DNA from: Bdellovibrionales bacterium
GTDB lineage: Bacteria; Myxococcota; XYA12-FULL-58-9; SYDY01
Length of the DNA stretch: 64,000 nucleotides
Assembly (NCBI GenBank): GCA_005801425.1
Contig: SYDY01000026.1
Coordinates: 23,350 to 87,349 of the forward strand
Direction of reading: 5' to 3'
Below the pieces are notes generated by a model, which ran no database searches, was not told the origin of the DNA, and worked only from the letters and a program-made list of their open reading frames with translations. Both the position numbers and the translations under genes were made by a program. Shown piece by piece: positions 7,555-40,323 of this stretch (its first letter is position 1; each line of letters opens with the position of its first letter).

Positions 7555-7804
7555 GGGGGTCTCCTGTTCATCATTAATGACGCGGAGCAGCCTTTAGCAC
7601 AGGTCATGCAAGGCGGGTAGATGGTCGTGCATATTTGGATCATTCCCTATTCTCGACTTTCGTAGGCCATGGTATGCGACATCATTATCCGCCGTCGTAC
7701 AGTGGCGATTTTGACAGAATGCACAATAGGTGCCTTACTGGTGATGGACTGGATGAATTGGATTAATGGTAGTGGCAGTTTAATTGCGGTGCAGGGAGAG
7801 GTGT

Positions 7805-9709: not shown

Positions 9710-9721
9710 AGGACGCATGCT

Positions 9722-10909
9722 ATGAATACGTATCACCGCGTTTTTTGTATCCTGACCACGGCATTATCTGTCACAAACTTTTTGGCATGCAATTATGCAA
9801 ATCGTGGTGCGAATTGTGACAATCCACAAGCCGAATGTTCCTCAGACAAATATCCCGAAGGAACATCACGCTTGGTCGTGGATCCTCCACTGGGCTTAGG
9901 CTTTGCATGCGTGAGTCTCGGATGTGACGAAACACAGTCCATGATGTTGTCCAACGCAGGTGATAGCGTTGTGCATGTGACCGATCTGCGTATCGTTTCG
10001 GAAACATCCGATGATTTTATAGTCTCACTGTGGCGTGTGCACGAGGATGGTTACCGTATTGCTGATTATTGGCCCACGCAAGCGCATCCACTTGCCATTC
10101 CGGCCCATGAGCGTGTCGAAATGCGTGTACGTTACAAGCCAACGGATATCCACAGCGATGCGGGGATTGTTCGTTTGGCATGGTTTGATGGGCTTAATGC
10201 AGGGCCGTTAGGAGAACCTTCGCGTATTACACTTCCACTTCGCGCACGTACCTTGCAAGCTGCATCTGCCCACATCGAGTCGCCTGAATTGCGTTTTGGT
10301 TACGTAGAACTTGGCGAATTGTCACAGATGCCTGTGCGCATTAAGAATATCAGTCAGCGTGATTCTATTTTAGAAATAACACGCATGGATACTTCTGCGC
10401 TTCCGCAGGGTGTGTGGATCTTGCCAGGCTATTCGCCTACGGCCAACGCAGGAGAAACGTTGAGTATTCCTCTCGTGTATCGACCCAGTACGCTTGCGCC
10501 ATCCATCGGGCATTTAACGGTATTTACCAACGACCCCAGTCAACCCTCGCTCCGTATCGATGTGCAGGGGACTTCGCTTGCCGATGGACAATTTGTATTA
10601 AGTGCGGCCACCCTGCCTGTGCTTGATATTGTGCTTGATGATCCAACCGAGCCCTTTAAAGTAACGGTCGTTGTGCAAAATGTGGGCGGTATGTCTGCCA
10701 TTGCGCGCCCAGAGGTGGTGGCCTCCCATATTTTTGGTTACGATGTGTTGTTCCCGAATGGTGGTGTGCAAACCATGGTTGAACCTTTTGGATTTGCTGC
10801 ATTTGAAGTCAATTTTGTACCGCAATCGCTCGATGATTCAGAACCGCGTATTGTCGTTGGGGATGGGGCCGTGGTTCGACTGCGGCCTCGCATTCGTGTT
10901 GTACCGTAG
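9722..10909 (+). CDS. Lipoprotein with choice-of-anchor-D/ASH-like Ig domains
   Basis: FLAC lipobox, ELRFGYV, IKN and FTNDP motifs; paralogous to the next gene. Confidence 0.68.
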   Translation: MNTYHRVFCILTTALSVTNFLACNYANRGANCDNPQAECSSDKYPEGTSRLVVDPPLGLGFACVSLGCDETQSMMLSNAGDSVVHVTDLRIVSETSDDFIVSLWRVHEDGYRIADYWPTQAHPLAIPAHERVEMRVRYKPTDIHSDAGIVRLAWFDGLNAGPLGEPSRITLPLRARTLQAASAHIESPELRFGYVELGELSQMPVRIKNISQRDSILEITRMDTSALPQGVWILPGYSPTANAGETLSIPLVYRPSTLAPSIGHLTVFTNDPSQPSLRIDVQGTSLADGQFVLSAATLPVLDIVLDDPTEPFKVTVVVQNVGGMSAIARPEVVASHIFGYDVLFPNGGVQTMVEPFGFAAFEVNFVPQSLDDSEPRIVVGDGAVVRLRPRIRVVP

Positions 10910-10953
10910 TGGCGTAGCTTGCTGCGCCATGACAACGCTTCGGGGGAGGCGCT

Positions 10954-13035
10954 ATGGCGACAAAAATTGGGAGGCATGTGCTGTGGCTTGGGCTGTTGCT
11001 GGAGCTTGCAGCGTGTGAGCGCGGCGGTCGTGCGGTGGTATGCAACGAGGATGGGGCGTCCTGTGTCTCCGGCTCGGTCGGTCTTGGTGATCCTCGGCTG
11101 TATGCGGATCCCCCTTATGGTTTGGGTTTTGCGTGTGTGGAGATCGGTTGTGATGAAGAGCAGATCATCACATTAAGCAATCGTGGACGTCCTGATGTGA
11201 TGATTACAAAGCTTCGTGTGCGCACGGAGACGTCTCCCGATATGCACGTGCGCCTTGTAAAAAATGCAGGAACATCCACCGAGCAAGAAATTCCATGGCC
11301 AACGACCGCAGCACCGTATCGTTTGCGCGATGACACCCTCGACCTTGCTGTGCGTTACACACCGAGAGATGCTATCAGCGACAGTGGTTTGATTGACGTG
11401 GAATGGTATGATGGCGAAGTAAAAGACGGAAGCGCCAAGATTATTCACGAAGAATTGCCGTTGCGCGCGCGTTCATTGGGGGATGCGACTGCATTGCTTG
11501 AACCTAGCACGGTGTCATTTGGCTATGTTGCGGTAGAGGCACACAGTGATGCGGTGATCCGCATTAAAAATATTTCCACCGAAAATTCGGTTCTTGTCAT
11601 TCATAGTGTGGATATCTCACGTTTGCCTGTCTCCATGCATTTGGGTCTTGGTTGGAATAACATGGCCAATTCAGAACATGCGATTGAGATCCCGTTGTCG
11701 TTTTTGCCCACCGAATTGGGGGGATTTTTCGGCGATGTGGTCCTGCACACCAATGATCCTCAAAATCCGGAATTGACAGTGAAGATACAAGGGACATCGC
11801 TTCCCATGGGGCAATTGGTACGCAGACAACCATTTTCAGGCATTGCGGATTTTAGAGAAAAGCGTGTTGATGAGCATGCCTCGGTGACCATGGTCGTGCA
11901 AAACATCGGTGGAACCTCCATGGATGTGCGACCGATCATTGAAGGGACAGGCAATCACGGTTTTTCTTTGCTGATGCCGGGGGATGTGCCGGAGGTCGCA
12001 CTTGCACCTTTTGCCATGCTTTCGTTTCAGGTGGTGTTGCACGTTCTGGTTCCGGGTGATGCGACGGTGGATGTGATTGCCAGTGACACCGCCCGTTTGC
12101 GTGCTCATGTCACAGGGCTGGCACCGCATTTGACGGTGACGCCTGTTGCCATGCGGTTTGCGCCGATTGCACAGGGCTGGCTTTCAGAACCCACGATGAT
12201 GCAATTGAAAAACGATGGGTATGGTCCGCTCACCATTTGGGATATCGCATCGTGGGGCAATACCGAAGCCATTCGTGTCATGACAACACCTGATTTTCCA
12301 TTGACACTGTGGCCTGGCGAACCTGCCATTGAGATCCCTGTGGTGATCCGTGGTTTGGATTTGGGGGCTGTGAATGGTGAAGTTCGGATCCGCAGCGATT
12401 CCATCGATACGTCGGTGTATCGCGTGTTGGTCTCAGGGCAGGTAAGTTCATGCAATGAGGTTTGTTTTACGCCCCATGCAACACCAAGTTGCATGTCCGG
12501 AACGTGCACCATCCAGCAGTGCGACGCGGGCTGGTACAATATGGATGAAGCAAACGTGAACAACTGGCGCAATGGATGTGAATGCCAAGCCGAACGTGAT
12601 GGCCGAGATATCGCGGGCAATTGCGCCGATGGGTTTGATGGTGGCGATGTTGGGGACCGATGCTCATCGGCACCCGACAACAAAACTTTTAAAGGCGTTT
12701 TGCAAAGCGCGACGGATGTGGACGTGTATTACTTTCACAACCGCGATTCGGGTTGTATCGAGGATTTTTTTACGGGCGATTCCTCGGAAAGCCGCGTGAC
12801 ACTTCTCGATGGACCGCCCGGCCTCGCTTTGTGCGCACGTATCAGAAGCAATGGCTCAGGTTGTGGCGATTACACCACCGTTTTTGACCCTTCGGTATGC
12901 GGACAAACGCAATACAGGAAGGGCAATACCTATGGGTCGGATGATTCCCGCGATACGACCTTCTGGCTCTTGTGGCGTCCAGGGGCTGCGCCTGTGTGTC
13001 AGCCTTATGCGGTACAGATAAGTGGCCGGGATTAG
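10954..13035 (+). CDS. Lipoprotein with Ig-like repeats and Cys-rich C-terminal region
   Basis: LAAC lipobox; shares DPPxGLGFACVxxGCDExQ with the previous gene; C-terminal Cys-rich CxxGWYNxD...NGCEC module. Confidence 0.68.
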   Translation: MATKIGRHVLWLGLLLELAACERGGRAVVCNEDGASCVSGSVGLGDPRLYADPPYGLGFACVEIGCDEEQIITLSNRGRPDVMITKLRVRTETSPDMHVRLVKNAGTSTEQEIPWPTTAAPYRLRDDTLDLAVRYTPRDAISDSGLIDVEWYDGEVKDGSAKIIHEELPLRARSLGDATALLEPSTVSFGYVAVEAHSDAVIRIKNISTENSVLVIHSVDISRLPVSMHLGLGWNNMANSEHAIEIPLSFLPTELGGFFGDVVLHTNDPQNPELTVKIQGTSLPMGQLVRRQPFSGIADFREKRVDEHASVTMVVQNIGGTSMDVRPIIEGTGNHGFSLLMPGDVPEVALAPFAMLSFQVVLHVLVPGDATVDVIASDTARLRAHVTGLAPHLTVTPVAMRFAPIAQGWLSEPTMMQLKNDGYGPLTIWDIASWGNTEAIRVMTTPDFPLTLWPGEPAIEIPVVIRGLDLGAVNGEVRIRSDSIDTSVYRVLVSGQVSSCNEVCFTPHATPSCMSGTCTIQQCDAGWYNMDEANVNNWRNGCECQAERDGRDIAGNCADGFDGGDVGDRCSSAPDNKTFKGVLQSATDVDVYYFHNRDSGCIEDFFTGDSSESRVTLLDGPPGLALCARIRSNGSGCGDYTTVFDPSVCGQTQYRKGNTYGSDDSRDTTFWLLWRPGAAPVCQPYAVQISGRD

Positions 13036-27953: not shown

Positions 27954-28021
27954 AGTATCGTAGAGCGGCATCTCTTGGCCATTGTGTGCCAATAAATGAC
28001 CAAAAATTGGGTAAAAGACAT

Positions 28022-30331
28022 ATGCATTTAAACAACGAATCAAAGTTTTCACGGCTGGGACGCATACTTTTGAAGCATCCTGCGTGGGTTTGGGTGGGTG
28101 TTATCGCCATATCGTTGGCCTGTGCGCATCAAATTCATCACAAATTGGTGTTGGATTCGAGTCCCGAAGCGTTTGTTCCTGAAAACTCCCCGGCACAGAA
28201 AGCTTTAGAGAAATCACGTGCCATTTTTGGCAACGACGACATTATTTTGGTGATGGCCAAAGGCGATGTCTTTTCGCTTCCGTTTTTGGATGCTTTGAAA
28301 CAGCTTCAAAACAAATTTTCAGATCTCAAACGAAAAGATATTGGTGTTGTCGCCGTAGGCCACAACGAGAAAGTTTTTGAAGAGATCACATCGCTGGTGA
28401 ATGTGCTGGGGCCTTCTGAAGAGCCTATGCAAGCCTTCAAAGTGCGCGTGCTTGCCAACAGCATGTTGGTGGACAATGTGGTGAGCGCCGATGGACATTT
28501 TGCTGCCATGGCATTGCGTATTCCATCTCTATCGCCTACGGACGGTCAGCTTCTTGCTGATGCCGTCAGCGATATTGCGAAAAAGACAACTCGCGACGAT
28601 TTTTCTCTGACGGTTGCAGGCATGCCTATTCTGAATGCCAATCTGAATACGATGATCAATATTGATCTGCGTAAAATGCTGTCGCTTGCCGGTCTTTTGA
28701 TGGTTGGATTTTTGGTCGCCATGCTGCGTGAGATCCGATCGGTGATGGGCTCTTTTATCGTCGTTGGTTTATCTGCACTGTGGACATTCGGTTTTATGGC
28801 GTTTGCAGGATATCCCGTCACGTTGATGTCCAACATGCTGCCTGCATTTCTTACATGTGTGAGTATCGGCAATTCGGTGCATTTGGTGAGTATCTTTCAG
28901 GATCGACGTCGCAAGGGCGCGAGTGATCAGGATGCCATCTGCATGGCGCTTGGCAGTGCGGGCGAGCCGATTGTGTACACAAGTTTGACCACCATGGTGG
29001 GCCTGCTGTCTTTGCGAACGTCGAGCATGGAAGCGATTTCACAAATGGGAACCGCAGGCGCGGTGGGTGCAGGTATTTCGGCTTTGCTTGCATTTCTCGT
29101 GTTGCCGATTGCATTGCGCAATGTTCACATCAATACCACCCCAGAAGATCACAGAGGTAGGGTTGACCGCAGTTTGATGGCGGCACTTGATCTCAGCTTC
29201 ACGAAGCGAGGCCGTGCAGGTGTTCTCATCGGTGCGCTGATTATCGCCATTGTCTCGGTGATAGGGATGCGTCGTTTGGAATTGTATCACGACCCACTCA
29301 GTTGGATGCCCAAGGGCAATCCATTGCGTGAAGCGTTTATGGAAATCGACACGCATATGGGGGGTGTGGCCCAAATGACGATGCTAGTAGAAACCAAAAC
29401 AGATCAAGGATTGAACGACCCCGAATTGCTCAAAGCGCTGTCTGCGATGAGTGCAGAGATTGCGGCATATGTGTATCCCAAAGATGGACAATCGCTTGTA
29501 ACCCATCAAGGGGGATTTCTTGCACTCGTCGAATCGACCTATCATACGATGATGCCTGGCGCAGATGTGAATGTGTTGTTCGACAATCCACAAATGCTTA
29601 CGCCTGTTCTTGGTGGTTTAAAAGCCTCGAACGATCCGATGCTTCGCCGTTATATCACAGAGGATTTTAAAACAGCGCAATTGCAGTTCCGTATTCGTTG
29701 GCGTGATGCAAGTGCCTACGAGGCATTCTCCAAACATACCCAAGCGGCCATCGATAAACATATTGGGTCGCGCGCTACCATCTCACCGACAGGTGTGGTG
29801 TATACACTTGCCAGCAGTATTGCGGTGTTGATCGGAAATTTGGTGTCATCGTTTGGCATAGCACTTGTGATGATTACAGCGCTGCTCATGATGGCTCTTC
29901 GCAGTGTACGTTGGGGGCTTGTTGCGATGATCCCCAATCTTTTACCCATTATGATGGTGCTCGGCATGATGGGTTTTTTGGGTATTCCTATTGATATGAT
30001 GAATTTGCTCATCGCATCGATTGCCATCGGTATTGCCGTGGATGACACCATCCATTTTGTGCATCATGTGCGTGTGGGCATAGCCGCCGGCAATACACTC
30101 GAACATGCCTTGCATCAGTCCATGCATGATTCAGGGCGCGCCATTGTAGCAGCCAGTGTGGTGCTTATCGCAGGGTTTGGCATTTACACGGCTTCCTCCA
30201 TGACCAATCTTCAACGGTTTGGACTGTTGGTCGCGTGCACTATCTTTTTTGCGCTGATCGCCGATCTTGTTTTGTCACCGGCTGTTCTGCGCTTTTTCTT
30301 TTTGGATAAAAAGGTGCCAGTGAAAAAGTAA
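28022..30331 (+). CDS. MMPL/RND-superfamily transporter
   Basis: Two repeats of TM + periplasmic domain + 5 TM; TSLTTMVG and IGIAVDDTIH. Confidence 0.9.
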   Translation: MHLNNESKFSRLGRILLKHPAWVWVGVIAISLACAHQIHHKLVLDSSPEAFVPENSPAQKALEKSRAIFGNDDIILVMAKGDVFSLPFLDALKQLQNKFSDLKRKDIGVVAVGHNEKVFEEITSLVNVLGPSEEPMQAFKVRVLANSMLVDNVVSADGHFAAMALRIPSLSPTDGQLLADAVSDIAKKTTRDDFSLTVAGMPILNANLNTMINIDLRKMLSLAGLLMVGFLVAMLREIRSVMGSFIVVGLSALWTFGFMAFAGYPVTLMSNMLPAFLTCVSIGNSVHLVSIFQDRRRKGASDQDAICMALGSAGEPIVYTSLTTMVGLLSLRTSSMEAISQMGTAGAVGAGISALLAFLVLPIALRNVHINTTPEDHRGRVDRSLMAALDLSFTKRGRAGVLIGALIIAIVSVIGMRRLELYHDPLSWMPKGNPLREAFMEIDTHMGGVAQMTMLVETKTDQGLNDPELLKALSAMSAEIAAYVYPKDGQSLVTHQGGFLALVESTYHTMMPGADVNVLFDNPQMLTPVLGGLKASNDPMLRRYITEDFKTAQLQFRIRWRDASAYEAFSKHTQAAIDKHIGSRATISPTGVVYTLASSIAVLIGNLVSSFGIALVMITALLMMALRSVRWGLVAMIPNLLPIMMVLGMMGFLGIPIDMMNLLIASIAIGIAVDDTIHFVHHVRVGIAAGNTLEHALHQSMHDSGRAIVAASVVLIAGFGIYTASSMTNLQRFGLLVACTIFFALIADLVLSPAVLRFFFLDKKVPVKK

Positions 30332-30389
30332 TCGACAAGCGCATTTATATATTTCCATGCTACAATTGATTGAACTGTGGGGGTGTAAG

Positions 30390-32027
30390 ATGCAATCATC
30401 CATACGTTCAGGGCTCTTTCTTTTTCTTTTGTGTGCATGTGGTGATGTGGGTGTTCATCGCGATCGGCAGGAGGAGTTTGAACAGGCCTCCTCCGAATCA
30501 CTTGCATCCGCGGTGGTCATCGACGATTTTTCGACCCCATTTTCAGTCTTGCATCCAGTGCTTCCTGGAAATGTCGGGGTGCATTACGACACATCTCCTC
30601 CTCTTCAATTGTCGGTGTTTGATCTCGCACCTGCAGGAAGCATCGGTACACGCTATGCCGCGGTGGATGTTGCTCGTGGCGCACAAGATTCGCAGATAAG
30701 TGTTGTTACACATCTGGCATTTAGCAATGGACCCGATCCTACGGGTTCTGGCTTTGTGGTTGAGTATCGAAAATTCGGTGCAATTGCTGGCGCACCTACA
30801 GGATTTGTACGTTTTGATGTCGTGGGGAGCGATATCTATTGGAGACGCGCCGAGGATGGAATTCCTGTGCGTATTGCTCTTAATGGGGTGACCCGTTCGG
30901 TTTCTGTTGCACCTACGGGCACTTATAGTATCCCACTGAGCAGTTTTACGGGGGTTGATTTGTCACGTATCACGGCCATAGGCTTTTCTTCGACAGCTCA
31001 ATTTTCTGGTGTGGATATCGCATTCGACAATCTGACCATCGATGGCGCGTTCTCCACGTGTTTGATGTCGCAGAGCCGTATTGTCGTGGATGATTTTTCT
31101 TCTGCATTTTCTGTAGCTCATCCCCAATACCCAGGCGTTCTTGGTGTCGATCGCCAAAATCCAGATCTGACAGAGCCGCTTCCCATCGCATCCTATGATG
31201 TGAATCCCGCCGCTGTGCTGGGCAATCGTCACGCATCGATTGAGGTGGACAATACTTTGAATGACTCAAGATTTCAGAGTGTTAAGGAGCTTTACTTTGA
31301 AAATGGTGCGGGTCTTGGGGCTTCACGTTTTGTCCTTACGTACGATGGCTTTCCACCCAAGGCATTTCCAAAAAATGGGGTATTCCATTTTAATTTGGTC
31401 GATAGTGATCTTGATAATCGAGGATTGGGATTTTCATTGCCAGCCGATATTACATTGAACGGTGTGACTCGAACAATTCAAATTTCTAAACCAGGTGTTT
31501 ATGAGATCCCGTTGAGTCGTTTTGTTGGTGTTAATTTAAAACGCGTGAGGTCGATCGCTTTTACGTTTGCGCAGCCCCAAAATGCACCCGGTGTTGACGT
31601 CGTTTTTGATAATTTTCGAATTCTTGCAACGAAGGTAGGGACGTGTGGACCGCCACCTCCGGCCCCTTTGACCGTGAGCTTGCTGTCTGATGCAATGTCC
31701 GTTGTTGAAGGCAATGATGATGATGTGGTTCGTGCTGTTATTACGGTTGTTTTAAATCGTCCAAGCGATAGTGAAGTGACTGTCGATTACGTAACAGAAG
31801 GCGACACAGCCTTGCCATCCTTGGATTATATTTCACCAGCAAGCCAAACCATTTCGGGAACACTTGTTTTTGCTCCCGGAGAAACCGTGAAAACCTATAC
31901 GGTCAATATTGTTTCTGACACCGACCCCGAAGACGATGAAACATTTTTTGTTTTGTTATCCAATCCCGTGAATGCAGAGCTTGGCATTGCATCGGAAGTT
32001 GTGACGATCGTGAATGATGATCTTTAG
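30390..32027 (+). CDS. Lipoprotein, paralogue 1: two tandem beta-sandwich repeats plus C-terminal Calx-beta domain
   Basis: LCAC lipobox; two DDFS...FDN repeats; VVEG...VTVDY.T.G.TA...DY...GTLVFAPGETVKT...D...E.DETF is a Calx-beta signature. Confidence 0.8.
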   Translation: MQSSIRSGLFLFLLCACGDVGVHRDRQEEFEQASSESLASAVVIDDFSTPFSVLHPVLPGNVGVHYDTSPPLQLSVFDLAPAGSIGTRYAAVDVARGAQDSQISVVTHLAFSNGPDPTGSGFVVEYRKFGAIAGAPTGFVRFDVVGSDIYWRRAEDGIPVRIALNGVTRSVSVAPTGTYSIPLSSFTGVDLSRITAIGFSSTAQFSGVDIAFDNLTIDGAFSTCLMSQSRIVVDDFSSAFSVAHPQYPGVLGVDRQNPDLTEPLPIASYDVNPAAVLGNRHASIEVDNTLNDSRFQSVKELYFENGAGLGASRFVLTYDGFPPKAFPKNGVFHFNLVDSDLDNRGLGFSLPADITLNGVTRTIQISKPGVYEIPLSRFVGVNLKRVRSIAFTFAQPQNAPGVDVVFDNFRILATKVGTCGPPPPAPLTVSLLSDAMSVVEGNDDDVVRAVITVVLNRPSDSEVTVDYVTEGDTALPSLDYISPASQTISGTLVFAPGETVKTYTVNIVSDTDPEDDETFFVLLSNPVNAELGIASEVVTIVNDDL

Positions 32028-32039
32028 GTTTTCTATATT

Positions 32040-32245
32040 CGTCATCCCCGCCTTCCTAAGAAACTTGAATTAAGCAGGTGTTCTCTTGTAGGGGCGGTTC
32101 GTGAACCGCCCTGCGGCGCTTGTAATATGCAAACAAGGCGGTTCGCGAACCGCCCCTACATAAAAAATAAGTAGAATCGTAGCGCCACAAGTTTCTCAAC
32201 TGCCGGGTAGCCCCAAAGGGCTGTCTGGAGTTCGCGGGGATGACG
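32040..32245. repeat. Composite palindromic element: CGTC inverted ends enclosing a GTAG REPIN (32088..32159)
   Basis: CGTCATCCCCGC ... GCGGGGATGACG outer inverted repeat; AGAAACTTG ... CAAGTTTCT middle inverted repeat; GTAG doublet inside. Confidence 0.85.
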
Positions 32246-32301
32246 TCTTGAGATAAGCAGAAAGACAGGCGCCCGTAGCAATGGCATGATACCTTTTATC
32301 T

Positions 32302-33936
32302 ATGAGAAAATATCACGTGATAACAAGAAGTCGTGTTGTCAGTGCGCTTTTTCTTTGGCTTTTAGGCGGTTGCGGGGCTGACGTTGAAAGCGACGATTTG
32401 CATGCGCAAACATCGTCGGAGGCGCTTGTTTCGTTGGCTGTCATCGACAATTTTTCGTCCCCATTTTCTGCAGTCCATCCGAGATATCCTGGAAAAATAG
32501 GGGTTTATATCGAGGAGCAATCTCCGCCATTGCCGTTAAATGCGTTTGATGCCGCACCCGCAGGAAGCCTTGGCACCCGCTACGCGATGATGGATGTGGG
32601 ACCCAACATACACGATACCTCACTGGCTGTTTATGGACGGTTGAGTTTTAGCAATGGGTCCTATCGGGAACAGTCTGCCTTTGTGGTTGCATATCGTAAA
32701 TTGGATGTCATTGGGGAACCCACAGGCTCTGTTCGTTTTGATGTTGTGAATAGTGATATTGGTGCACTCCCCGCCGACAGACGCCTTGTGAGCATTGCCC
32801 TCAATGGGATCACAAAGACCGTGAAGGTCGGGCCACCGGGATCATACAGCATTCTACTTAGCAGTTTTCCCGGGCTTGATGTGTCGCACATTACATCCGT
32901 AGATTTTGGTTTTTCGACAGGCATGTCGGTAGGTCTTGATATTTCATTTGATAATTTAGCGATTGATGGTGCGGCTTCCACATGCTCGGTGTCGATCGTC
33001 AGCACCCGTGTCGATGATTTTTCGTCGCCGTTTTCTGCAACCCATCCCCAGTATCCTGGCGTGCTTGGTGTCGACAGTTGGAATCCAAAGCTTACACAGC
33101 AGCTCCCTCAAATCTCATTGGATCTTTGGCCTACAGGTGCAATAGGTGTTCGGCATACATTCATGGTGGTAGACCGTGTTTTGTATGATTCACGACTTAT
33201 TAGTGGGGGGCTTCTTTTTTTCAACAACGGTCCAGAGTATGGGGCTTCGCGCTTTACCATTGCATACAATGCTTTTTCACCGATGGCATTGCCTGTTGAT
33301 AGCGTTTTTCATTTCGATTTGGTCCACAGTGACATCGCTTCGTCAGTACCCGTACAGCTGAAAGTGAATGGCGTGGTTCGTACCATCATGGTTTCCAAAC
33401 CAGGTCCCTATGAAATCCCCTTGCGACTATTCAAAAGCGTTAATTTGAAACACGCAACATCGTTTGATTTTTCTTTCGAACAACCCCTTGGAATGTCGGG
33501 TCTTGATGTTGCTTTTGATAATTTTCGTATTGATTCGACCTTGGCTGAGGATTGTGTGGATCCGCCGGAACCGCCTCTTACCGTGAGTTTGCTTTCTGCG
33601 ACCATGTCAATTGTTGAAGGCAATGAGGATGACATCGTGCGCGCTGTCATCACGGTTTTTTTGAATCGTCCAAGCGACGATGAAGTCACCGTGAATTACG
33701 CGACAGTGGGCGACACCGCTTTGCCATCCTTGGACTATACTTCACCCTCAAGCCAAACCATTTCGGGAACACTTGTTTTTGCTCCCGGAGAAACCGTGAA
33801 AACCTATACGATCAATATTATTTCCGATACCGACCCTGAAGATGATGAAACATTTTTTGTTTTGTTATCGAATCCTGTGAATGCACAGCTTGGCATCGCA
33901 TCCGAGGTGGTGACGATCGTGAATGATGATTTTTAG
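32302..33936 (+). CDS. Lipoprotein, paralogue 2 (tandem beta-sandwich + Calx-beta)
   Basis: LGGC lipobox; colinear with paralogue 1. Confidence 0.8.
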   Translation: MRKYHVITRSRVVSALFLWLLGGCGADVESDDLHAQTSSEALVSLAVIDNFSSPFSAVHPRYPGKIGVYIEEQSPPLPLNAFDAAPAGSLGTRYAMMDVGPNIHDTSLAVYGRLSFSNGSYREQSAFVVAYRKLDVIGEPTGSVRFDVVNSDIGALPADRRLVSIALNGITKTVKVGPPGSYSILLSSFPGLDVSHITSVDFGFSTGMSVGLDISFDNLAIDGAASTCSVSIVSTRVDDFSSPFSATHPQYPGVLGVDSWNPKLTQQLPQISLDLWPTGAIGVRHTFMVVDRVLYDSRLISGGLLFFNNGPEYGASRFTIAYNAFSPMALPVDSVFHFDLVHSDIASSVPVQLKVNGVVRTIMVSKPGPYEIPLRLFKSVNLKHATSFDFSFEQPLGMSGLDVAFDNFRIDSTLAEDCVDPPEPPLTVSLLSATMSIVEGNEDDIVRAVITVFLNRPSDDEVTVNYATVGDTALPSLDYTSPSSQTISGTLVFAPGETVKTYTINIISDTDPEDDETFFVLLSNPVNAQLGIASEVVTIVNDDF

Positions 33937-34006
33937 GATTTCATTCGACGCTCAGATTTTCGATAAATAAATGTATCCACCCTTGATGCTATGCTAGACT
34001 TTTTTT

Positions 34007-35638
34007 ATGAAAATGCATTGTCGTATAGCGAAGCGTTATGTCGGTGGTGTCTTTTTTCTCTGGATTTTGGGCGCTTGTGGAAGTTTGCAAATAAGTGACG
34101 ATTTGCCTGCACAGACATCGTCTGATGCGCTTGTTTCCAGCGTTGTCATCGACAATTTCTCCTCTTGGTTCTCCGCAGTGCATCCAAGATATCCATCCAT
34201 GATAGGTGTTTATGGTGGGGAATCCCTTCCACTGCCATTGTCTGCATTTGATTCTGCAGCGGCAGGGAGTCTTGGCACCCGTTATGCGACCATGGATGTG
34301 GGGCCCAATCTATGCGAGACCTCATTGTACGTTTACGACAGCTTGGTTTTTAAGAATGGACACTATCGTGAGCAATCCGCCTTTGTGATCGAATACCGTA
34401 AATTCGGTGTGATCGCGGGGGATCCCACAGGCTCCATTCGTTTTGATGTGGTGACCAGCAATATTGCGAATGCACCTTCTGCACGGCTTCCTGTCAGCGT
34501 GACGCTTGATGGGATCACCCGTAGCGTGAATGTTGGCCCTGCAGGATCATACACCATTCCACTCAGCAGTTTTACGGGACTTGATATCGCACGCATTACA
34601 GCCGTCGGCTTTCGTTTTGCCACAGGTTCGACCATTGGCATTAACATTTCATTTGATAATTTAGCGATTGATGGCCAGGTTTCCCCATGTCCTGTGTCAA
34701 TCGCCAGCACGCGTGTGGATGATTTTTCATCATCATTTTCTGATCCGCATCCCCAATACCCAGGCGTGGTGGGTATCGATCGTCAAAACCGTCTTCTGAC
34801 ACAGCCGCTTCCCTTGTCGTCATTTGATGTGGCGCCTGCAGGTGCAATGGGCAATCGGTATACCTCGATGCAGATAGACAGTGCTTTACCGGCATCAACA
34901 CTGAAGAGTGGTTCGTCGCTTTTGTTCAATAACGGTTCGGGTGCTGGCGTTTCACGCTTTACACTCAGCTACAATGGATTTTCACCACTGGCATTGCCTG
35001 CGACAGGGGTTTTTCATTTTGATTTGGTGAGCAGTGATCTGAGTTCATGGCACGTGCCAGCACGGCTGACCGTGAATGGTGTGACACGAATTATTATTAT
35101 TTCCAAACCAGGTCCCTATGAAATTCCATTAAATACATTCAAAGGCGTTAATTTGGCGAACGTGACCTCGTTTGCCTTTTCTTTCGCACAACCACGCGAG
35201 ATCGTTGATCTTGATATTGTGTTCGATAATTTACGCATTGACTCAACACAGGCAGAGGATTGCGGGGGAGAGCAGCCTCTTATCGTGAGTTTGCTTTCAG
35301 CGAGCATGTCGATTGTTGAAGGCAACGAGGATGATATTGTTCGTGCGGTCATCACGGTTTTTTTGAATCGTCCAAGCGACGATGAAGTGACTGTCGATTA
35401 CGCGACCGTGGGCGATACAGCCTTGCCATCGCTCGATTATTTTTCACCGGCAAGCCAAACCATTTCGGGGACCCTTGTTTTTGCTCCTGGAGAAACCGTG
35501 AAAACCTACACGATCAATATTGTTTCCGAGAACGATCCAGAAGATGATGAAACATTTTTTGTTTTGTTATCAAATCCAGTGAATGCACAACTTGGTATTG
35601 CCTCTGAAGTGGTGACTATTGTGAATGATGATTTTTAA
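34007..35638 (+). CDS. Lipoprotein, paralogue 3 (tandem beta-sandwich + Calx-beta)
   Basis: LGAC lipobox; colinear with paralogues 1 and 2. Confidence 0.8.
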   Translation: MKMHCRIAKRYVGGVFFLWILGACGSLQISDDLPAQTSSDALVSSVVIDNFSSWFSAVHPRYPSMIGVYGGESLPLPLSAFDSAAAGSLGTRYATMDVGPNLCETSLYVYDSLVFKNGHYREQSAFVIEYRKFGVIAGDPTGSIRFDVVTSNIANAPSARLPVSVTLDGITRSVNVGPAGSYTIPLSSFTGLDIARITAVGFRFATGSTIGINISFDNLAIDGQVSPCPVSIASTRVDDFSSSFSDPHPQYPGVVGIDRQNRLLTQPLPLSSFDVAPAGAMGNRYTSMQIDSALPASTLKSGSSLLFNNGSGAGVSRFTLSYNGFSPLALPATGVFHFDLVSSDLSSWHVPARLTVNGVTRIIIISKPGPYEIPLNTFKGVNLANVTSFAFSFAQPREIVDLDIVFDNLRIDSTQAEDCGGEQPLIVSLLSASMSIVEGNEDDIVRAVITVFLNRPSDDEVTVDYATVGDTALPSLDYFSPASQTISGTLVFAPGETVKTYTINIVSENDPEDDETFFVLLSNPVNAQLGIASEVVTIVNDDF

Positions 35639-35644
35639 ACCAGT

Positions 35645-36460
35645 TTAGCTTCTCGGTGCATTGTTCCAGCCAAATACATCCATCACTTTTTCTGAACATA
35701 CGGGCAATGCCATTCCTGTAAAGATAAGGCGTGCAAATCGAAATGCACCACCCGTATACAACGCAGGAAGCCCACCGATCGCCGCAATATCGCGTATTGT
35801 ATCGAGGAGACCTTTTTTGGTGACACTTTGCAGTGTCCCCGCAGTATCGAGGGGTTGCGTGATTACGCTTACGGTTGCTCCCGCAATGGCTCCACCGAGA
35901 ATGTCGCGTTGCTGTTTTGTTCCATCGGGTAAAAGATGCTTGGTCGCATGTTCAAACAATTCAGGACTGACCACCAAGGCATAGGGATATTCGCGCATCG
36001 CACGGGTTCGTATGGCGGGCCAATTGTAAGATTTCTTCATTGCATGGGCGAATGTCGACCCATTTTGTTGTAAAATTTGCAGTGTTTCGCTTGTTGCCGA
36101 AAAAAATGTGACCCATGTGCCCGATGTTAATGTTGCGAGGATGCGAGCATTGTTGTGACTTGCCCCAGCGTCGATGGCAGCGTGTTTGGTGTAGTCGTTG
36201 AGGCCTCGTGCGACGCCAATGTAGATGGGACGAAGACACATTTGCTGTACAAGGGTTTTTGAAAACGCTGGCCACAGAGGTTTGACGGGTTCCATAAGTC
36301 CCATTTGCGCTCTGATTTTCATGGATTGCAGATAATGTCCCACGGGGACAAGATCACCCAAGGAGCCAGCACCGCAGGCTATGCCGATTTGAAGCGGTGT
36401 ATGACGGTAGGGTGAGGCTTGCGCAGGCTCTGAACGTGATACAGGATCCATATGGGGCAC
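35645..36460 (-). CDS. Mitochondrial carrier family (SLC25/MCF)-like protein
   Basis: About 270 aa with three repeats; GGAIAGATVSVITQPLDT...GLLDTIRDIAAIGGLPALYTG..FR..R in repeat 3, KIRAQ in repeat 1, REYPY in repeat 2. ATG 36451 is an alternative start. Confidence 0.75.
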   Translation of the reverse strand: MPHMDPVSRSEPAQASPYRHTPLQIGIACGAGSLGDLVPVGHYLQSMKIRAQMGLMEPVKPLWPAFSKTLVQQMCLRPIYIGVARGLNDYTKHAAIDAGASHNNARILATLTSGTWVTFFSATSETLQILQQNGSTFAHAMKKSYNWPAIRTRAMREYPYALVVSPELFEHATKHLLPDGTKQQRDILGGAIAGATVSVITQPLDTAGTLQSVTKKGLLDTIRDIAAIGGLPALYTGGAFRFARLIFTGMALPVCSEKVMDVFGWNNAPRS

Positions 36461-36685
36461 TTACGTGTATTGTGCTTTATTTTCAACTTGTATTTTGTAC
36501 ACTGTTCAATCACTGAACCTAAGGCAACTCCCTGATAGTAAAGCGTCCCATTCCAGGGTTGAGGCGCCTGCATGGCAAGGCGCGAGGCGGAGGTGATATG
36601 TACGATATGCCGAGCGCCGAGTAACACAGCCATGCGGGATGGATCGACACTTGAATGGGACGCTTTACTATCAGGGAGTGCCTAA

Positions 36686-39103
36686 ATGGCGGGACATGGT
36701 GAACTGGCGCGTGTGGTAAATCCTTGGGATGGCCCGCACGGTATTGATGCGATGATTTCCTCATGGCGTGGTGAGAAGCTTTGGAAAAGCATCGCACTTG
36801 AGCACGTCACCTCAGCGAAAGAACAAGATTTGGTCCCGTTTCCGGAATCGTTGCCGCGCGATGTGATGCTTGCGCTGCAAGCGCGCGGTTTTTCGGGCAT
36901 TTATCGCCATCAACGTGAGGCGTACGAAGCGGCATTGCTCGGCAAGCATGTGGTGATCGCAACGCCCACGGCATCGGGAAAAAGTCTGTGTTACAACTTG
37001 CCCATTTTAAAAGCACTTGCAGATCACACAGAATCGCGTGCTCTTTATTTGTTCCCCACCAAAGCATTGGCACGGGATCAAGAACACAATGTACGGCAAC
37101 TTTGTGCTGATGCAGGACTCTTACATCCGGTGTGTACCTATGACGGTGACACACCTTCGGATGCACGTCGTAATGCCCGTCAAAACAGCCGTCTGTTGTT
37201 GACCAACCCTGATATGTTGCATACCGGTATTTTGCCCCACCATGCCTCGTGGGCACGTTTTTTTGCCGATCTGCGGTATGTGATCATCGATGAATTGCAT
37301 AGCTATCGTGGGGTGTTTGGATCCCATCTTGCCAATGTGATCAGGCGCCTTCGTCGTGTGGCGCATTTTCACGGATCGGATCCGGTGTTTATGTTGGCAT
37401 CGGCCACCATCGGCAATCCGCAAGAGCATGCATCGCGCATGATCGGATCGCCCGTAACGTTGGTTGATCAAAGTGGTGCGCCGCAAGGACCGCGCACGGT
37501 CTTGTTGTACAATCCCCCGGTGATCAATGCAGAGCTTGGTATTCGCGCGAGTTATGTGAAATCGGCAGTTAGAATCGCCCGTGATCTGATCCGTGCAGGA
37601 GTCTCAACGTTGGTGTTTGGTCAAAGCCGCAACAATGTCGAAATGATGCTTAAGTACTTGCGCGATAGAGCAATCAAAGACCGTATGGACCCTGAGATGA
37701 TCCACGGCTATCGTGGAGGCTATTTGCCCCAAACCAGAAGGCGCATTGAAAACGATTTGCGTGATGGAAAAATCCGTTGTGTGGTTGCCACCAATGCACT
37801 TGAATTGGGCATTGATATTGGAAGTTTGGACGCAGTGGTGTGTGCGGGGTTTCCGGGTTCTGTGGCTGCATTGTGGCAGCGCTTTGGACGTGGTGGGCGT
37901 CGGCAAGAACACTCACTTGCGATCCTTGTCACATCAAGTGCGCCTTTGGATCAATATTTTGCATTGCAACCCGCCGACTTGGTGGGTGCGCCTATTGAGC
38001 ATGCGCGTATCGATCCCGACAACATGGAAATTTTGATCCAACATCTCAAATGTGCAGCTTTTGAACTTCCATTTTCCGAGGGCGATGATTTTGGAAGCAT
38101 CACGACTGAAAATACCAAGCATGCGCTTGATTTCTTAATTGGACATCGCGTGTTGCATGGGAGTGTCAATTCAAAAGGCCATCGTATGGTGCATTGGGCC
38201 TCTGAGGGCTATCCCGCCAACAACGTATCATTGCGAAGTATTGGCTGGGATAATGTGGTGATTATTGATGTCGAAAAAGGAAAAACATTCGCTGAAATGG
38301 ATTTTCGTTCTGCCCATACGATGTTGCATGAGCAGGCCATTTATCAACATGCGGGCTTGCAGTTTGAAGTCGAGCGTTTTGATATTGAGGAACATAAAGC
38401 ATATGTGCGTCAAGTCATCCCGGATTATTTTACAGATGCGATGACGTATGTGCGTGTGCAGGTGATCGACGAAGAGCAACACGGACATATTCAAGCCGTA
38501 GGATCGCTTCATTATGTAGGGGCGCTTCGCGAAGCGCCCTGTGCTCTTCGCGTGGGCTTGGGCGAAGTGAGTGTGGTTGAAAAAGTGGTGGGTTACAAAA
38601 AAATTAAATACCACACCCATGAAAATGTGGGTTATGGCGATGTTCGTTTGCCGGAGATGCAAATGCATACCACGGCGGTTTGGTTTGGTTTTCCTGAAAG
38701 CCTTTGGTTGCCCTTGGCGCTTCCAAGGCCAAGCGTTGTTGATGGCATTTGTGGTGTGGCCCATGCCATGCATACAGTGGCGTCTGTGGGCCTCATGACT
38801 GATCCTCGTGATATTGGCTATACTGTGATCGATGAGCAGGGCAGTGCAGCCATGCCTGCATTTGAACCAACGGCGTATTTGTACGATCACATACCGGGCG
38901 GTATTGGTCTTGCGCCGCGTTTATTTGAAGATCGTCATGAACTTTTACGACGCACCCATCATTTGATTCTCCATTGCCCGTGTCGTTCAGGTTGCCCTGC
39001 GTGTGTTGGGGCGATTATTGAAAAACCAGTCGTGTCGCAGCAAGCTGCGCCGCTACAAAATCGCAAGCAGGTCGCGCGTCTTCTTCTTGAAAGTATTCTA
39101 TGA
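36686..39103 (+). CDS. DEAD/DEAH-box helicase with C-terminal DUF1998 (MrfA/YprA/Hrq1 family)
   Basis: TPTASGKS, FPTKAL, TNPDMLH, DELH, SAT, TNALELGIDIG, QRFGRGGR and CPCRSGCPAC. Confidence 0.92.
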   Translation: MAGHGELARVVNPWDGPHGIDAMISSWRGEKLWKSIALEHVTSAKEQDLVPFPESLPRDVMLALQARGFSGIYRHQREAYEAALLGKHVVIATPTASGKSLCYNLPILKALADHTESRALYLFPTKALARDQEHNVRQLCADAGLLHPVCTYDGDTPSDARRNARQNSRLLLTNPDMLHTGILPHHASWARFFADLRYVIIDELHSYRGVFGSHLANVIRRLRRVAHFHGSDPVFMLASATIGNPQEHASRMIGSPVTLVDQSGAPQGPRTVLLYNPPVINAELGIRASYVKSAVRIARDLIRAGVSTLVFGQSRNNVEMMLKYLRDRAIKDRMDPEMIHGYRGGYLPQTRRRIENDLRDGKIRCVVATNALELGIDIGSLDAVVCAGFPGSVAALWQRFGRGGRRQEHSLAILVTSSAPLDQYFALQPADLVGAPIEHARIDPDNMEILIQHLKCAAFELPFSEGDDFGSITTENTKHALDFLIGHRVLHGSVNSKGHRMVHWASEGYPANNVSLRSIGWDNVVIIDVEKGKTFAEMDFRSAHTMLHEQAIYQHAGLQFEVERFDIEEHKAYVRQVIPDYFTDAMTYVRVQVIDEEQHGHIQAVGSLHYVGALREAPCALRVGLGEVSVVEKVVGYKKIKYHTHENVGYGDVRLPEMQMHTTAVWFGFPESLWLPLALPRPSVVDGICGVAHAMHTVASVGLMTDPRDIGYTVIDEQGSAAMPAFEPTAYLYDHIPGGIGLAPRLFEDRHELLRRTHHLILHCPCRSGCPACVGAIIEKPVVSQQAAPLQNRKQVARLLLESIL
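38516..38539 (+). repeat. Single GTAG REP inside the helicase CDS
   Basis: GTAGGGGCGCTTCGCGAAGCGCCC is identical to 53567..53590 and is translated as VGALREAP. Confidence 0.88.
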
Positions 39104-40323
39104 GTTTTTTGCGCAAGCTTTCAGCTATAAAAACTCCCCCTTCAGAAAACTCCCCCTCTGGGGGAGTCGCTCACGCAGTGAGCGGTGGGGGTGTTCTTCC
39201 GGTGGGTGTGTTCTGCGGTGAGGATGCAGTTGAGCCCGATACACTCCCCGGTATCCGTGAAGAAACCCCGTGGGGCGTTGTGCGCGTGATCCGCGAGCGT
39301 CTGCCTTTGGCGTCATTGTACGGCACGGCATGTTTGGAACATGTGCGTTCGGTGGATGGTGCATACCTCGCAAGCTTTTCTCGAGATCCTGCTTTGTCGT
39401 GTTTTTCGCCCGACGATTTACTTTTTGTAGACACCGAAACAACAGGGTTAGCAGGTGGTACGGGCACGATCGCTTTTTTAATTGGCCTCGGCCGTATTGA
39501 ATCTGAGTCGCTTCTGATTGAACAATTTCTTCTTGAAACATTCGGTTACGAACATGCTGCCCTGCATGCGGTGCATGAGCGTGTTCAACAAAGCGGGGCG
39601 ATTGCCAGTTTCAATGGTAAAAGTTTTGATCTGCCTCTTTTGCGAACACGTTGGGTGATGCACCGTGTGCCCCATGCCACGGATATGCCACATCTCGATC
39701 TTCTTCATGGATCACGCAGGCAGCTGGGACGAAGTGTCACATCCCACCGGTTACAGGTGCTTGAACGCGAAATCTTGGGATATACACGCGAAGGCGACAT
39801 ACCAGGCCATGAGATCCCCGAAGCCTATTTTGACTTTTTGCGTACCGGTGAATCAGAACGCTTGCATACCATCGTCAAACACAATCGTGACGATATTGTT
39901 GCCATGGTGGCATTGCTTGCACGTTTGCACCGTCGCTTTCATGACATTGAACCGGTGCATTGTGCTGAAGAATTTCTCGCCCTTGCAACGCGTGCTTATG
40001 AGCAAAGAAATTGGGAACGCTGTTTGCGTGATGCCTCAAAATCGCTGTTCTCGACATTTCATGGGAAAACAGCATCTGAGGCAGCACTTCTTGGTGCACG
40101 GGCTGCACGGCAATTAAAACAATACGACAAGGCACAACGTGTTTTAGAACATGCGTTGTCTGCATTTGAACATTACGCTATGCCTGACGTTCATTTGGCT
40201 TTGGCAAAACTTTACGAGCATCAACTTGGCAGCGTGAAAGATGCCTTGTTTCATGCCGAAAAATCGCAAAGTGCAGAATCAACAGCGAGTTATCAGCGGC
40301 GTATGGCACGGCTGCGGTTGTAG
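39100..40323 (+). CDS. RNase_H_2/DEDD exonuclease with TPR-like C-terminus (MrfB/YprB family)
   Basis: FVDTETTGL, SFNGKSFD, HLDLLH and HNRDD; ATGA overlap with the helicase. Confidence 0.88.
   Translation: MSFLRKLSAIKTPPSENSPSGGVAHAVSGGGVLPVGVFCGEDAVEPDTLPGIREETPWGVVRVIRERLPLASLYGTACLEHVRSVDGAYLASFSRDPALSCFSPDDLLFVDTETTGLAGGTGTIAFLIGLGRIESESLLIEQFLLETFGYEHAALHAVHERVQQSGAIASFNGKSFDLPLLRTRWVMHRVPHATDMPHLDLLHGSRRQLGRSVTSHRLQVLEREILGYTREGDIPGHEIPEAYFDFLRTGESERLHTIVKHNRDDIVAMVALLARLHRRFHDIEPVHCAEEFLALATRAYEQRNWERCLRDASKSLFSTFHGKTASEAALLGARAARQLKQYDKAQRVLEHALSAFEHYAMPDVHLALAKLYEHQLGSVKDALFHAEKSQSAESTASYQRRMARLRL

Follow-up and report, generated by a model that had tools for sequence, protein, structure and literature searches.

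The DNA considered here, the window, is a stretch of 64,000 nucleotides from contig SYDY01000026.1 of a Bdellovibrionales bacterium (assembly GCA_005801425.1), and the gene of interest in it encodes a divergent member of the mitochondrial carrier family (SLC25, Pfam Mito_carr). The gene occupies positions 35645..36460 on the minus strand and, as defined by the open reading frame (ORF) list, the Pfam PF00153 match and the ESM Atlas model, encodes 271 amino acids from a GTG start, with the stop codon lying within these coordinates. An alternative ATG start at residue 4 (36449..36451, minus strand) gives the 268-residue form of the public databases, where protein P0001 corresponds to query residues 4-271. 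Upstream of the GTG and the ATG no Shine-Dalgarno-like run was evident by eye. The reading frame is unbroken across the 271 codons with normal codon usage, and the N-terminus of the product is a polar tail of 22 residues. The original prediction, which proposed a carrier homologue in a bacterial chromosome, had quoted the strings GGAIAGATVSVITQPLDT, KGLLDTIRDIAAIGGLPALYTG, HYLQSMKIRAQ, ATSETLQILQQ and MREYPY, and all of them were found in the translation.

The proposed assignment to Mito_carr was borne out by the PF00153 scan, by the annotation of related sequences and by a fold match in the Atlas. PF00153 matched residues 185-264 with an E value of 7e-8 and 32.5 bits, above the gathering cut-off of 22.3, and a six-frame search of the genome gave 33.6 bits at the same place (C15:59018-59257). 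An exhaustive HMMER search of 1,835,955,588 representatives at E<=0.001 recovered seven proteins, namely the query itself and six others at 35-41 bits, and each of the six carries PF00153. No relative among these 1.84 billion representatives exceeded about 31% identity; the phmmer match to the related protein P0005 spans query residues 38-261. In the ESM Atlas the 30 feature neighbours, of which the best scores 0.94, are without exception Mito_carr clusters. The Atlas model of the protein (pTM 0.70, pLDDT 0.74) aligned with a eukaryotic carrier cluster over 257 residues at a template modeling (TM) score of 0.75, both sides being predicted models, and with another carrier cluster over 236 residues at a TM score of 0.60. 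NCBIfam has no family for the protein, a PDB sequence search returned a chance match only (E 1.9), a word-index sequence search found the protein itself alone while its profile version gave few matches, and a contig search from which its own genome was left out gave no match.

The family signal in the sequence lies in repeat 3 (residues 185-264; 35669..35908, minus strand), the sole repeat recognized by profiles, namely by Pfam, the six-frame search, a repeat hidden Markov model (HMM) and hhalign. The repeat HMM, built without the window protein, gave a single match, at residues 188-260 with 44 bits, and hhalign against canonical carriers aligned residues 169-245 with a probability of 85% and an E value of 5.9e-6. 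This repeat has the Px[DE] motif, a second signature of the GxxxxYxG type and the helix pattern of the family. The ORF thus encodes a real, very divergent mitochondrial carrier homologue.

The gene is firmly bacterial. Its neighbors had been described as ordinary bacterial genes, and this description held: they encode an MMPL protein, Calx-beta lipoproteins, MrfA with an RNase_H_2 protein, ArgG, QueA, Tgt, SecD/SecF and LpoB, and the window also holds a Dam methylase gene. An independently assembled contig of 3648 bases from run X1 (depth 15.5) spans positions 35542-39189 with 0 differences and joins the carrier gene to the end of a Calx-beta gene on one side and to the helicase gene on the other, the depth being even over the flanks. 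The carrier gene has a GC content of 50.5%, or 46.0% at third codon positions, and in codon adaptation it ranks at the 50th percentile among 1470 long ORFs. Since this composition is typical of the genome, the transfer of the gene was not recent.

In the divergent intergenic region upstream of the carrier gene lies a palindromic repeat element (36527..36679), with arms at 36527-36562 and 36644-36679 that form a 36-nt inverted repeat of 92% complementarity and a core at about 36567-36630. It lies upstream of both genes, at 67 nt from the carrier GTG and 7 nt from the mrfA ATG. The core aligns at 30 of 39 positions with the region upstream of a second carrier-like gene of the same genome (on contig C76, described below), a score reached by 1 of 1000 shuffles and by 0 of 1000 random genome pieces. 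Co-regulation of the two genes was considered as an explanation for this match and dropped, as the match belongs to a dispersed palindromic family that is not specific to carriers. With nhmmer 12 core copies were found in the genome at E<0.01; the copy at C76:7494-7658 is self-complementary and lies about 100 nt upstream of the carrier-like gene there, and further copies occur on C12, C56, C20, C101, C75, C97 and C94. The element is one of a dispersed family of about 150 nt resembling miniature inverted-repeat transposable elements or repetitive extragenic palindromes.

Other features of the window were noted in passing. A MrfAB-like repair pair (36686-40323), consisting of a MrfA-type helicase with DEAD, Helicase_C, HRQ1 winged helix and MrfA Zn-binding domains followed by an RNase_H_2-superfamily protein, is transcribed divergently from the carrier gene. 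At 30357-35638 three tandem paralogous genes encode lipoprotein-like proteins of 543-556 residues, each with a C-terminal Calx-beta domain, and this trio lies directly downstream of a gene for an MMPL/RND-type transporter (27986-30331). Further away, at 7784-13035, three consecutive large proteins contain Ig-like domains of the ASH/HYDIN/Cep192 type. Such domains are better known from proteins of eukaryotic cilia and centrosomes.

The genome that carries the window (G000; 3.38 Mb in 121 contigs, 100% complete) is the sole member of its family and genus among the genomes compared. Relatives of its ArgG, at 69-74%, bear mixed names from metagenome-assembled genomes of Planctomycetota, Myxococcota, Deltaproteobacteria and Eisenbacteria, and the nearest Atlas cluster of its SecD is commonest in Myxococcota; on account of these two observations we give the host phylum only as probably Myxococcota. 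A freshwater-metagenome run is the only strong holder of the locus and may be its source, with a small share of the locus in run X2 and next to none in X3.

Two further carrier-like genes occur in the same genome. The gene on C76 (7712-8608) encodes 298 residues, of which the middle repeat, with the canonical motif PLENVRQRQ, is recognized at 20.9-22.8 bits. Its paralogue on C68 (29788-31119) encodes 443 residues with 36% identity to the C76 protein over 235 residues (tblastn E 1e-39). In the C68 protein about 195 residues at the N-terminus form a polar extension; the protein lacks a Pfam match and shows a significant hydropathy period of 81 residues (5 of 500 shuffles as high), and its gene is adjoined by a PLD-like gene. 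BLASTP found no similarity between the window protein and the C76 protein, and among 401 genomes of the phylum the C76/C68 type is present in G000 alone.

The carrier family is rare in this lineage. Of the 22 genomes of the order 2 contain PF00153, and 2 were likewise found among the 401 genomes of the phylum sample, these being G000 and G020. The window protein itself has no credible relative in the 401 genomes; one match in G066 (20 bits, E 6e-4 per genome) was taken as chance over a sample of that size. The G020 genome (88% complete, 4% contamination) contains three full carrier genes and a fragment on the short contigs C414, C164, C585 and C738. Two of its full carriers, with PxxE..QQQ in their repeat 2, are closely paralogous, the third is more canonical, and all have N-terminal extensions of 37-50 residues rich in Ser, Thr, Pro and Asn. 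One of the genes adjoins a gene for a lipocalin with a lipobox, and a contig search with a G020 carrier returned its own record only.

Genes suggestive of contact with eukaryotes are found elsewhere in G000. A cluster for a non-flagellar type III secretion system (T3SS) on the minus strand of C114 (10140-25048) encodes SctU, SctT, SctR, a FliM-like protein, HpaP and SctN with the C-terminal domain of T3SS ATPases, together with FliH, a FliG_M-like protein, a short YscJ and a factor of the sigma-70 family; an ORF of 92 residues in the cluster may be SctS. SctV (FHIPEP) is encoded alone on C118 among housekeeping genes. Within the cluster, between the FliM-like and HpaP genes, lies a gene for an IpgD-family protein of 719 residues (102 bits, C114:15695-17854), and a second member of 816 residues (59 bits) is encoded at C118:24447-26897; G000 is the only one of the 401 phylum genomes with this family. 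Flagellin is absent from the genome. In a survey of the order FliP occurred in all 22 genomes and flagellin in 16, and most of the genomes carry two FliP genes. G000, with one FliP and no flagellin, seems to have retained the non-flagellar system alone. The genome further contains a sheath gene of a type VI secretion system (T6SS), four ankyrin-repeat proteins and a protein of 426 residues (C12:9197-10477) with an F-box-like domain (28 bits, above the cut-off) and WD40 repeats (104 bits). An F-box followed by WD40 repeats is the layout of substrate receptors in eukaryotic SCF ubiquitin ligases.

The hydrophobicity of the carrier was expressed as the best Kyte-Doolittle mean over 19 residues (KD19). 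The window protein reached 1.26, the C76 protein 1.79 and the C68 protein 1.44, compared with 1.40-1.93 for nine eukaryotic and other carriers and 2.18-2.91 for all nine bona fide inner-membrane proteins of G000 that were included. Membrane effectors of the T3SS and of the type IVB secretion system are described as lying mostly just under the threshold for targeting by the signal recognition particle (SRP) (PMC6110835; here and below, statements on cited papers refer to the part of each source that was available). To judge from these values, the low hydrophobicity of the carrier mildly favors export over use in the bacterium's own membrane.

The original prediction regarded the protein as a horizontally acquired effector or a repurposed transporter, with the Legionella effector LncP as precedent. 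Repeat 3 is homologous to carriers, the gene is located in a bacterium and is rare in its lineage, secretion systems and eukaryote-like genes are present, and the hydrophobicity is low; from these findings we infer export, host, targeting and mode of transport as follows. The carrier would be synthesized in the bacterial cytoplasm, where its weakly hydrophobic helices would let it avoid insertion into the bacterium's own membrane. Its export to a eukaryotic cell, which is probably that of a protist, would most plausibly go through the non-flagellar T3SS. The carrier import machinery of the host (TOM, small TIMs and TIM22) would insert it into the inner membrane of the mitochondria, as for LncP, and there it may serve as a uniporter or leak, changing the membrane potential or the pools of metabolites or nucleotides in the mitochondria to the benefit of the bacterium. 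This reading, of an anciently acquired and strongly diverged carrier that is exported into host mitochondria, parallels LncP, and we judge its chances to be about even. The effector proposal gains circumstantial support from features that the original prediction had no access to: the genome has a T3SS, two IpgD-like genes of which one is embedded in the T3SS cluster, the F-box/WD40 protein, four ankyrin-repeat proteins and a T6SS, and its carrier-like proteins have transmembrane segments of low hydrophobicity. A host-directed secretion system in the producer, as for LncP-type effectors, is represented by the T3SS core without flagellin and by the T6SS sheath gene. The Dot/Icm system, by which LncP is delivered and which is the one proven route for a bacterial carrier, was not found by searches for VirB4 and DotI/IcmL.

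A number of observations weigh against export to a eukaryotic host. With 3.38 Mb at 100% completeness and with ArgG and other biosynthesis genes, the organism looks free-living. Neither a secretin nor a needle gene was identified in G000; VirB4 was not found there, and neither was DotI/IcmL, for which the control matched nowhere. The match to TLC is a fusion of TLC and HEAT of 958 residues (C32:54256-57132) and not a classical ATP/ADP translocase, so it gives no sign of energy parasitism. Because FliP is present in all 22 genomes of the order, possession of a T3SS is not special to G000, and the T3SS of this phylum may act on bacterial prey. Proteins with six helices are unusual T3SS cargo. 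No secretion gene or chaperone lies beside the carrier gene, no upstream 14-mer is shared by the carrier and T3SS operons beyond chance, and the listed holders of the locus include no RNA run. Low hydrophobicity is moreover an inherited trait of all carriers and shows merely that the protein has not adapted to a bacterial membrane. To these points belong the negative results for the first two repeats, which are given below.

If the protein is not exported, it could be a domesticated transporter in the bacterium's own cytoplasmic membrane, oriented with the matrix side toward the cytoplasm and moving a solute for the bacterium. The genome-typical composition would mark it as an old resident, the gene stands among envelope and housekeeping genes, three diverged paralogues are what might be expected of a family with several uses, and the searches for VirB4 and DotI/IcmL did not find a type IV secretion system. 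A hand count with helix positions taken from the alignment also gave more Lys and Arg in the would-be cytoplasmic loops, about 14 versus 8. The KD19 value of 1.26 speaks against it, since at least 2.18 was found in all nine native inner-membrane proteins and by the criterion of PMC6110835 such a value disfavors efficient targeting by SRP. Furthermore, a literature search of a partial collection gave no carrier working naturally in a bacterial membrane, and the other eukaryote-directed genes of G000 point outward. We regard domestication as a minor possibility, and it is similarly unlikely that all three carrier-like proteins work in the cytoplasmic membrane, which would be the first case of a prokaryote employing transporters of the SLC25 fold for itself.

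The gates of the carrier bear on both its mode of transport and a second alternative. The matrix gate of the family is formed by Px[DE]xx[RK]xxxQ motifs on helices H1, H3 and H5 and the cytoplasmic gate by [YF][DE]xx[RK] motifs on H2, H4 and H6 (PMC12410006). On the alignment, the H1 matrix-gate position YLQSMKIRAQ (Y43-Q52; 36305..36334, minus strand) has lost the Pro and the acid and kept the Lys and the Gln brace, whereas the H3 position TSETLQILQQ (T123-Q132; 36065..36094, minus strand) has lost the Pro and the base and kept the Glu and the Gln brace. The H5 motif PLDTAGTLQS (P203-S212; 35825..35854, minus strand), which is in a well-aligned region, retains Pro and Asp, while its base is replaced by Gly. 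The matrix motif is thus incomplete, with one of three prolines, two of three acids, one of three bases and two of three Gln braces, the alignment at H1 and H3 being uncertain as the region of repeats 1 and 2 is not independently significant. At the cytoplasmic-gate positions the alignment places NDYTK on H2, FEHAT(K) on H4 and SEKVM on H6, so that all three acids are present with one of three aromatic residues and one of three bases in register. The nearest relatives, P0005 and G020a/b, share the loss of the acid on H1, the loss of the base on H3 and the QQ after H3.

In the ADP/ATP carrier the matrix salt bridges pair the acid of H1 with the base of H3, the acid of H3 with the base of H5 and the acid of H5 with the base of H1. 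Under this pairing D205-K48 could be the one pair that forms in the window protein, at most one of three, and strict exchange is therefore unlikely. The loss of salt-bridge residues that had been predicted is accordingly seen on the alignment, with the uncertainty noted for repeats 1 and 2. Deviations from the motifs make the protein less of a typical carrier and do not lower its homology, as many true carriers deviate at some positions.

Such degraded gates might also belong to a carrier fold that no longer transports, for instance a scaffold, a lipid scramblase or an insertase-like protein of the kind described among diverged relatives of SLC25, or to a slowly decaying relic. In line with this are the residues lost from both gate motifs, the branch length of 2.0 changes per site in the tree described below and the lack of any relative above about 31% identity in the exhaustive search. 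There are also precedents: MTCH2 is reported as an insertase that diverged from SLC25 (PMC12934571), and for the SLC25-like effector Lpg1137 an activity other than transport is reported (PMC5621508). Loss of function is harder to reconcile with an intact frame of 271 codons with normal codon usage, with the good preservation of repeat 3 and the Gln braces, and with two more paralogues that are intact as well; according to the title of PMC9104175, some matrix-gate salt bridges are non-essential. On balance a non-transport role or decay appears quite unlikely.

The proposed three-repeat character of the protein found support from the profiles and hhalign for repeat 3, while repeats 1 and 2 were not supported by the independent profile, by hhalign or by periodicity. 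Even at E<=10 Pfam reported a single stretch, corresponding to repeat 3. With a carrier profile that had been chosen independently, residues 1-184 reached -0.6 bits, a value equaled by 52 of 500 shuffles, and hhalign against canonical carriers gave E 0.19 for the same residues. The periodicity of hydropathy was not significant (r 0.32 at a shift of 83; 140 of 500 block-shuffles as high). These results would suit a chimera in which the last 90 residues stem from a carrier and residues 1-184 are an unrelated membrane segment, without a six-helix carrier fold. The periodicity test fails for two true carriers too, however, and against a profile of the closest carriers residues 1-184 gave a collinear match of 30.1 bits that 0 of 500 shuffles reached, this profile being partly circular since half of its members were chosen by similarity to the query. 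The P0005 match also extends well beyond the last repeat (residues 38-261), the Atlas model aligns 257 of the 271 residues to carriers, and the length of the protein fits three repeats. Landmark residues read from the sequence on the alignment recur at intervals of 80-88 residues in three sets, namely the Px[DE] positions (Y43, T123 and P203), the aromatic residues of the second signature (W63, W147 and Y235) and the acids of the cytoplasmic gate (D89, E170 and E257). Because of the Atlas model and this regular spacing we consider a carrier fold over the whole length, with all six helices, to be very probable, and a chimera correspondingly improbable.

The origin of the gene was examined with a tree of 15 rows, from which the fragment P0006, the near-duplicates P0008, P0009, P0011 and P0013, and the C68 protein were left out. 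It came out as an unresolved star whose branches, that of the window protein among them, are very long. Its bacterial rows require 4 changes, and 229 of 500 shuffles were as low. Constraining the window protein to group with G020a/b cost 6.5 log-likelihood units (approximately unbiased test, p-AU 0.073), so that this clade is not rejected. The best outside match, the P0002/P0008 group, is found on contigs with PH-domain and gelsolin genes that are split over several ORFs, which is a eukaryotic context. Horizontal acquisition, as originally suggested, agrees with this context and with the rarity of the family in the order and phylum; the star tree shows neither a donor nor a direction of transfer. 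Most likely the gene was taken from a eukaryote long ago. A native prokaryotic origin in a Myxococcota-like lineage, with these proteins as relatives of eukaryotic carriers and not as imports, is exceedingly improbable in view of the 2-in-401 distribution, the eukaryotic context of the nearest matches and the star tree.

Mitochondrial carriers have been reported from a few intracellular bacteria, belonging to the Legionellales, Rickettsiales and Chlamydiales (PMC5621508, PMC3252375). To call LncP the characterized bacterial example, as was done at the outset, is incomplete, as Lpg1137 and carriers in L. longbeachae and Neorickettsia sennetsu are also named (PMC3252375, PMC5621508). After its injection LncP is inserted through TIM9:10 and TIM22, and it carries out unidirectional ATP transport as well as exchange (PMC3252375). 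The window protein resembles it in being encoded by an intronless chromosomal gene of the carrier family in a bacterium with eukaryote-like genes, and the path proposed here would be the same, injection followed by import through the host's carrier pathway; the unidirectional transport by LncP (PMC3252375) would fit the weakened gates. The two differ in route, which is Dot/Icm for LncP and for which the T3SS is the candidate here, where neither VirB4 nor DotI/IcmL was found, and in phylum, the window protein coming from another one, probably Myxococcota. They also differ in how well they are recognized: Pfam detects all three repeats of LncP (PMC5621508) and one in the window protein.

Like the window protein, Lpg1137, of the SLC25_like family PF18405, is a very divergent bacterial SLC25 homologue; its repeats lie far from the eukaryotic cluster, the middle one being the most divergent (PMC5621508), whereas in the window protein the well-kept repeat is the third. 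PF18405 gave no match to the window protein even at E<=10, which places the protein outside that family; weak matches below the threshold were seen for three distant relatives of the window protein. With eukaryotic SLC25 proteins the window protein shares the signatures of repeat 3, the overall length, the predicted fold and the low hydrophobicity of the helices. It differs from them in a matrix salt-bridge network of at most one of three pairs under the pairing given above, in the loss of two of the three helix-kink prolines, in its shorter repeats (80-88 residues, the family having repeats of about 100), in the polar 22-residue N-terminal tail and in the bacterial location of its gene. The carriers of giant viruses (Nucleocytoviricota) likewise represent the family outside eukaryotic genomes, and a viral cluster gave a weak match with a TM score of 0.47 by query over 169 residues.

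A literature search of a partial collection returned no paper describing carriers in Myxococcota. Since bacterial carriers are already known, what is new here is likely the lineage and a different probable delivery route. Three members of the family occur in this genome, which comes from fresh water and is probably Myxococcota-like; it has a non-flagellar T3SS, two IpgD-like homologues of phosphoinositide phosphatases, an F-box/WD40 protein and ankyrin proteins, and a type IV system was not found in it. Should the three function in the bacterium's own membrane, this would be a first for the carrier fold, and if they are native prokaryotic relatives they would have a bearing on the origin of mitochondrial carriers. 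If export into host mitochondria is correct, natural carriers with stripped-down gates would be at hand that are useful for testing which salt bridges transport needs, the set of secretion routes that handle six-helix cargo would be wider, and an undescribed protist-associated lineage would exist in a phylum that is known for its predation on microbes.

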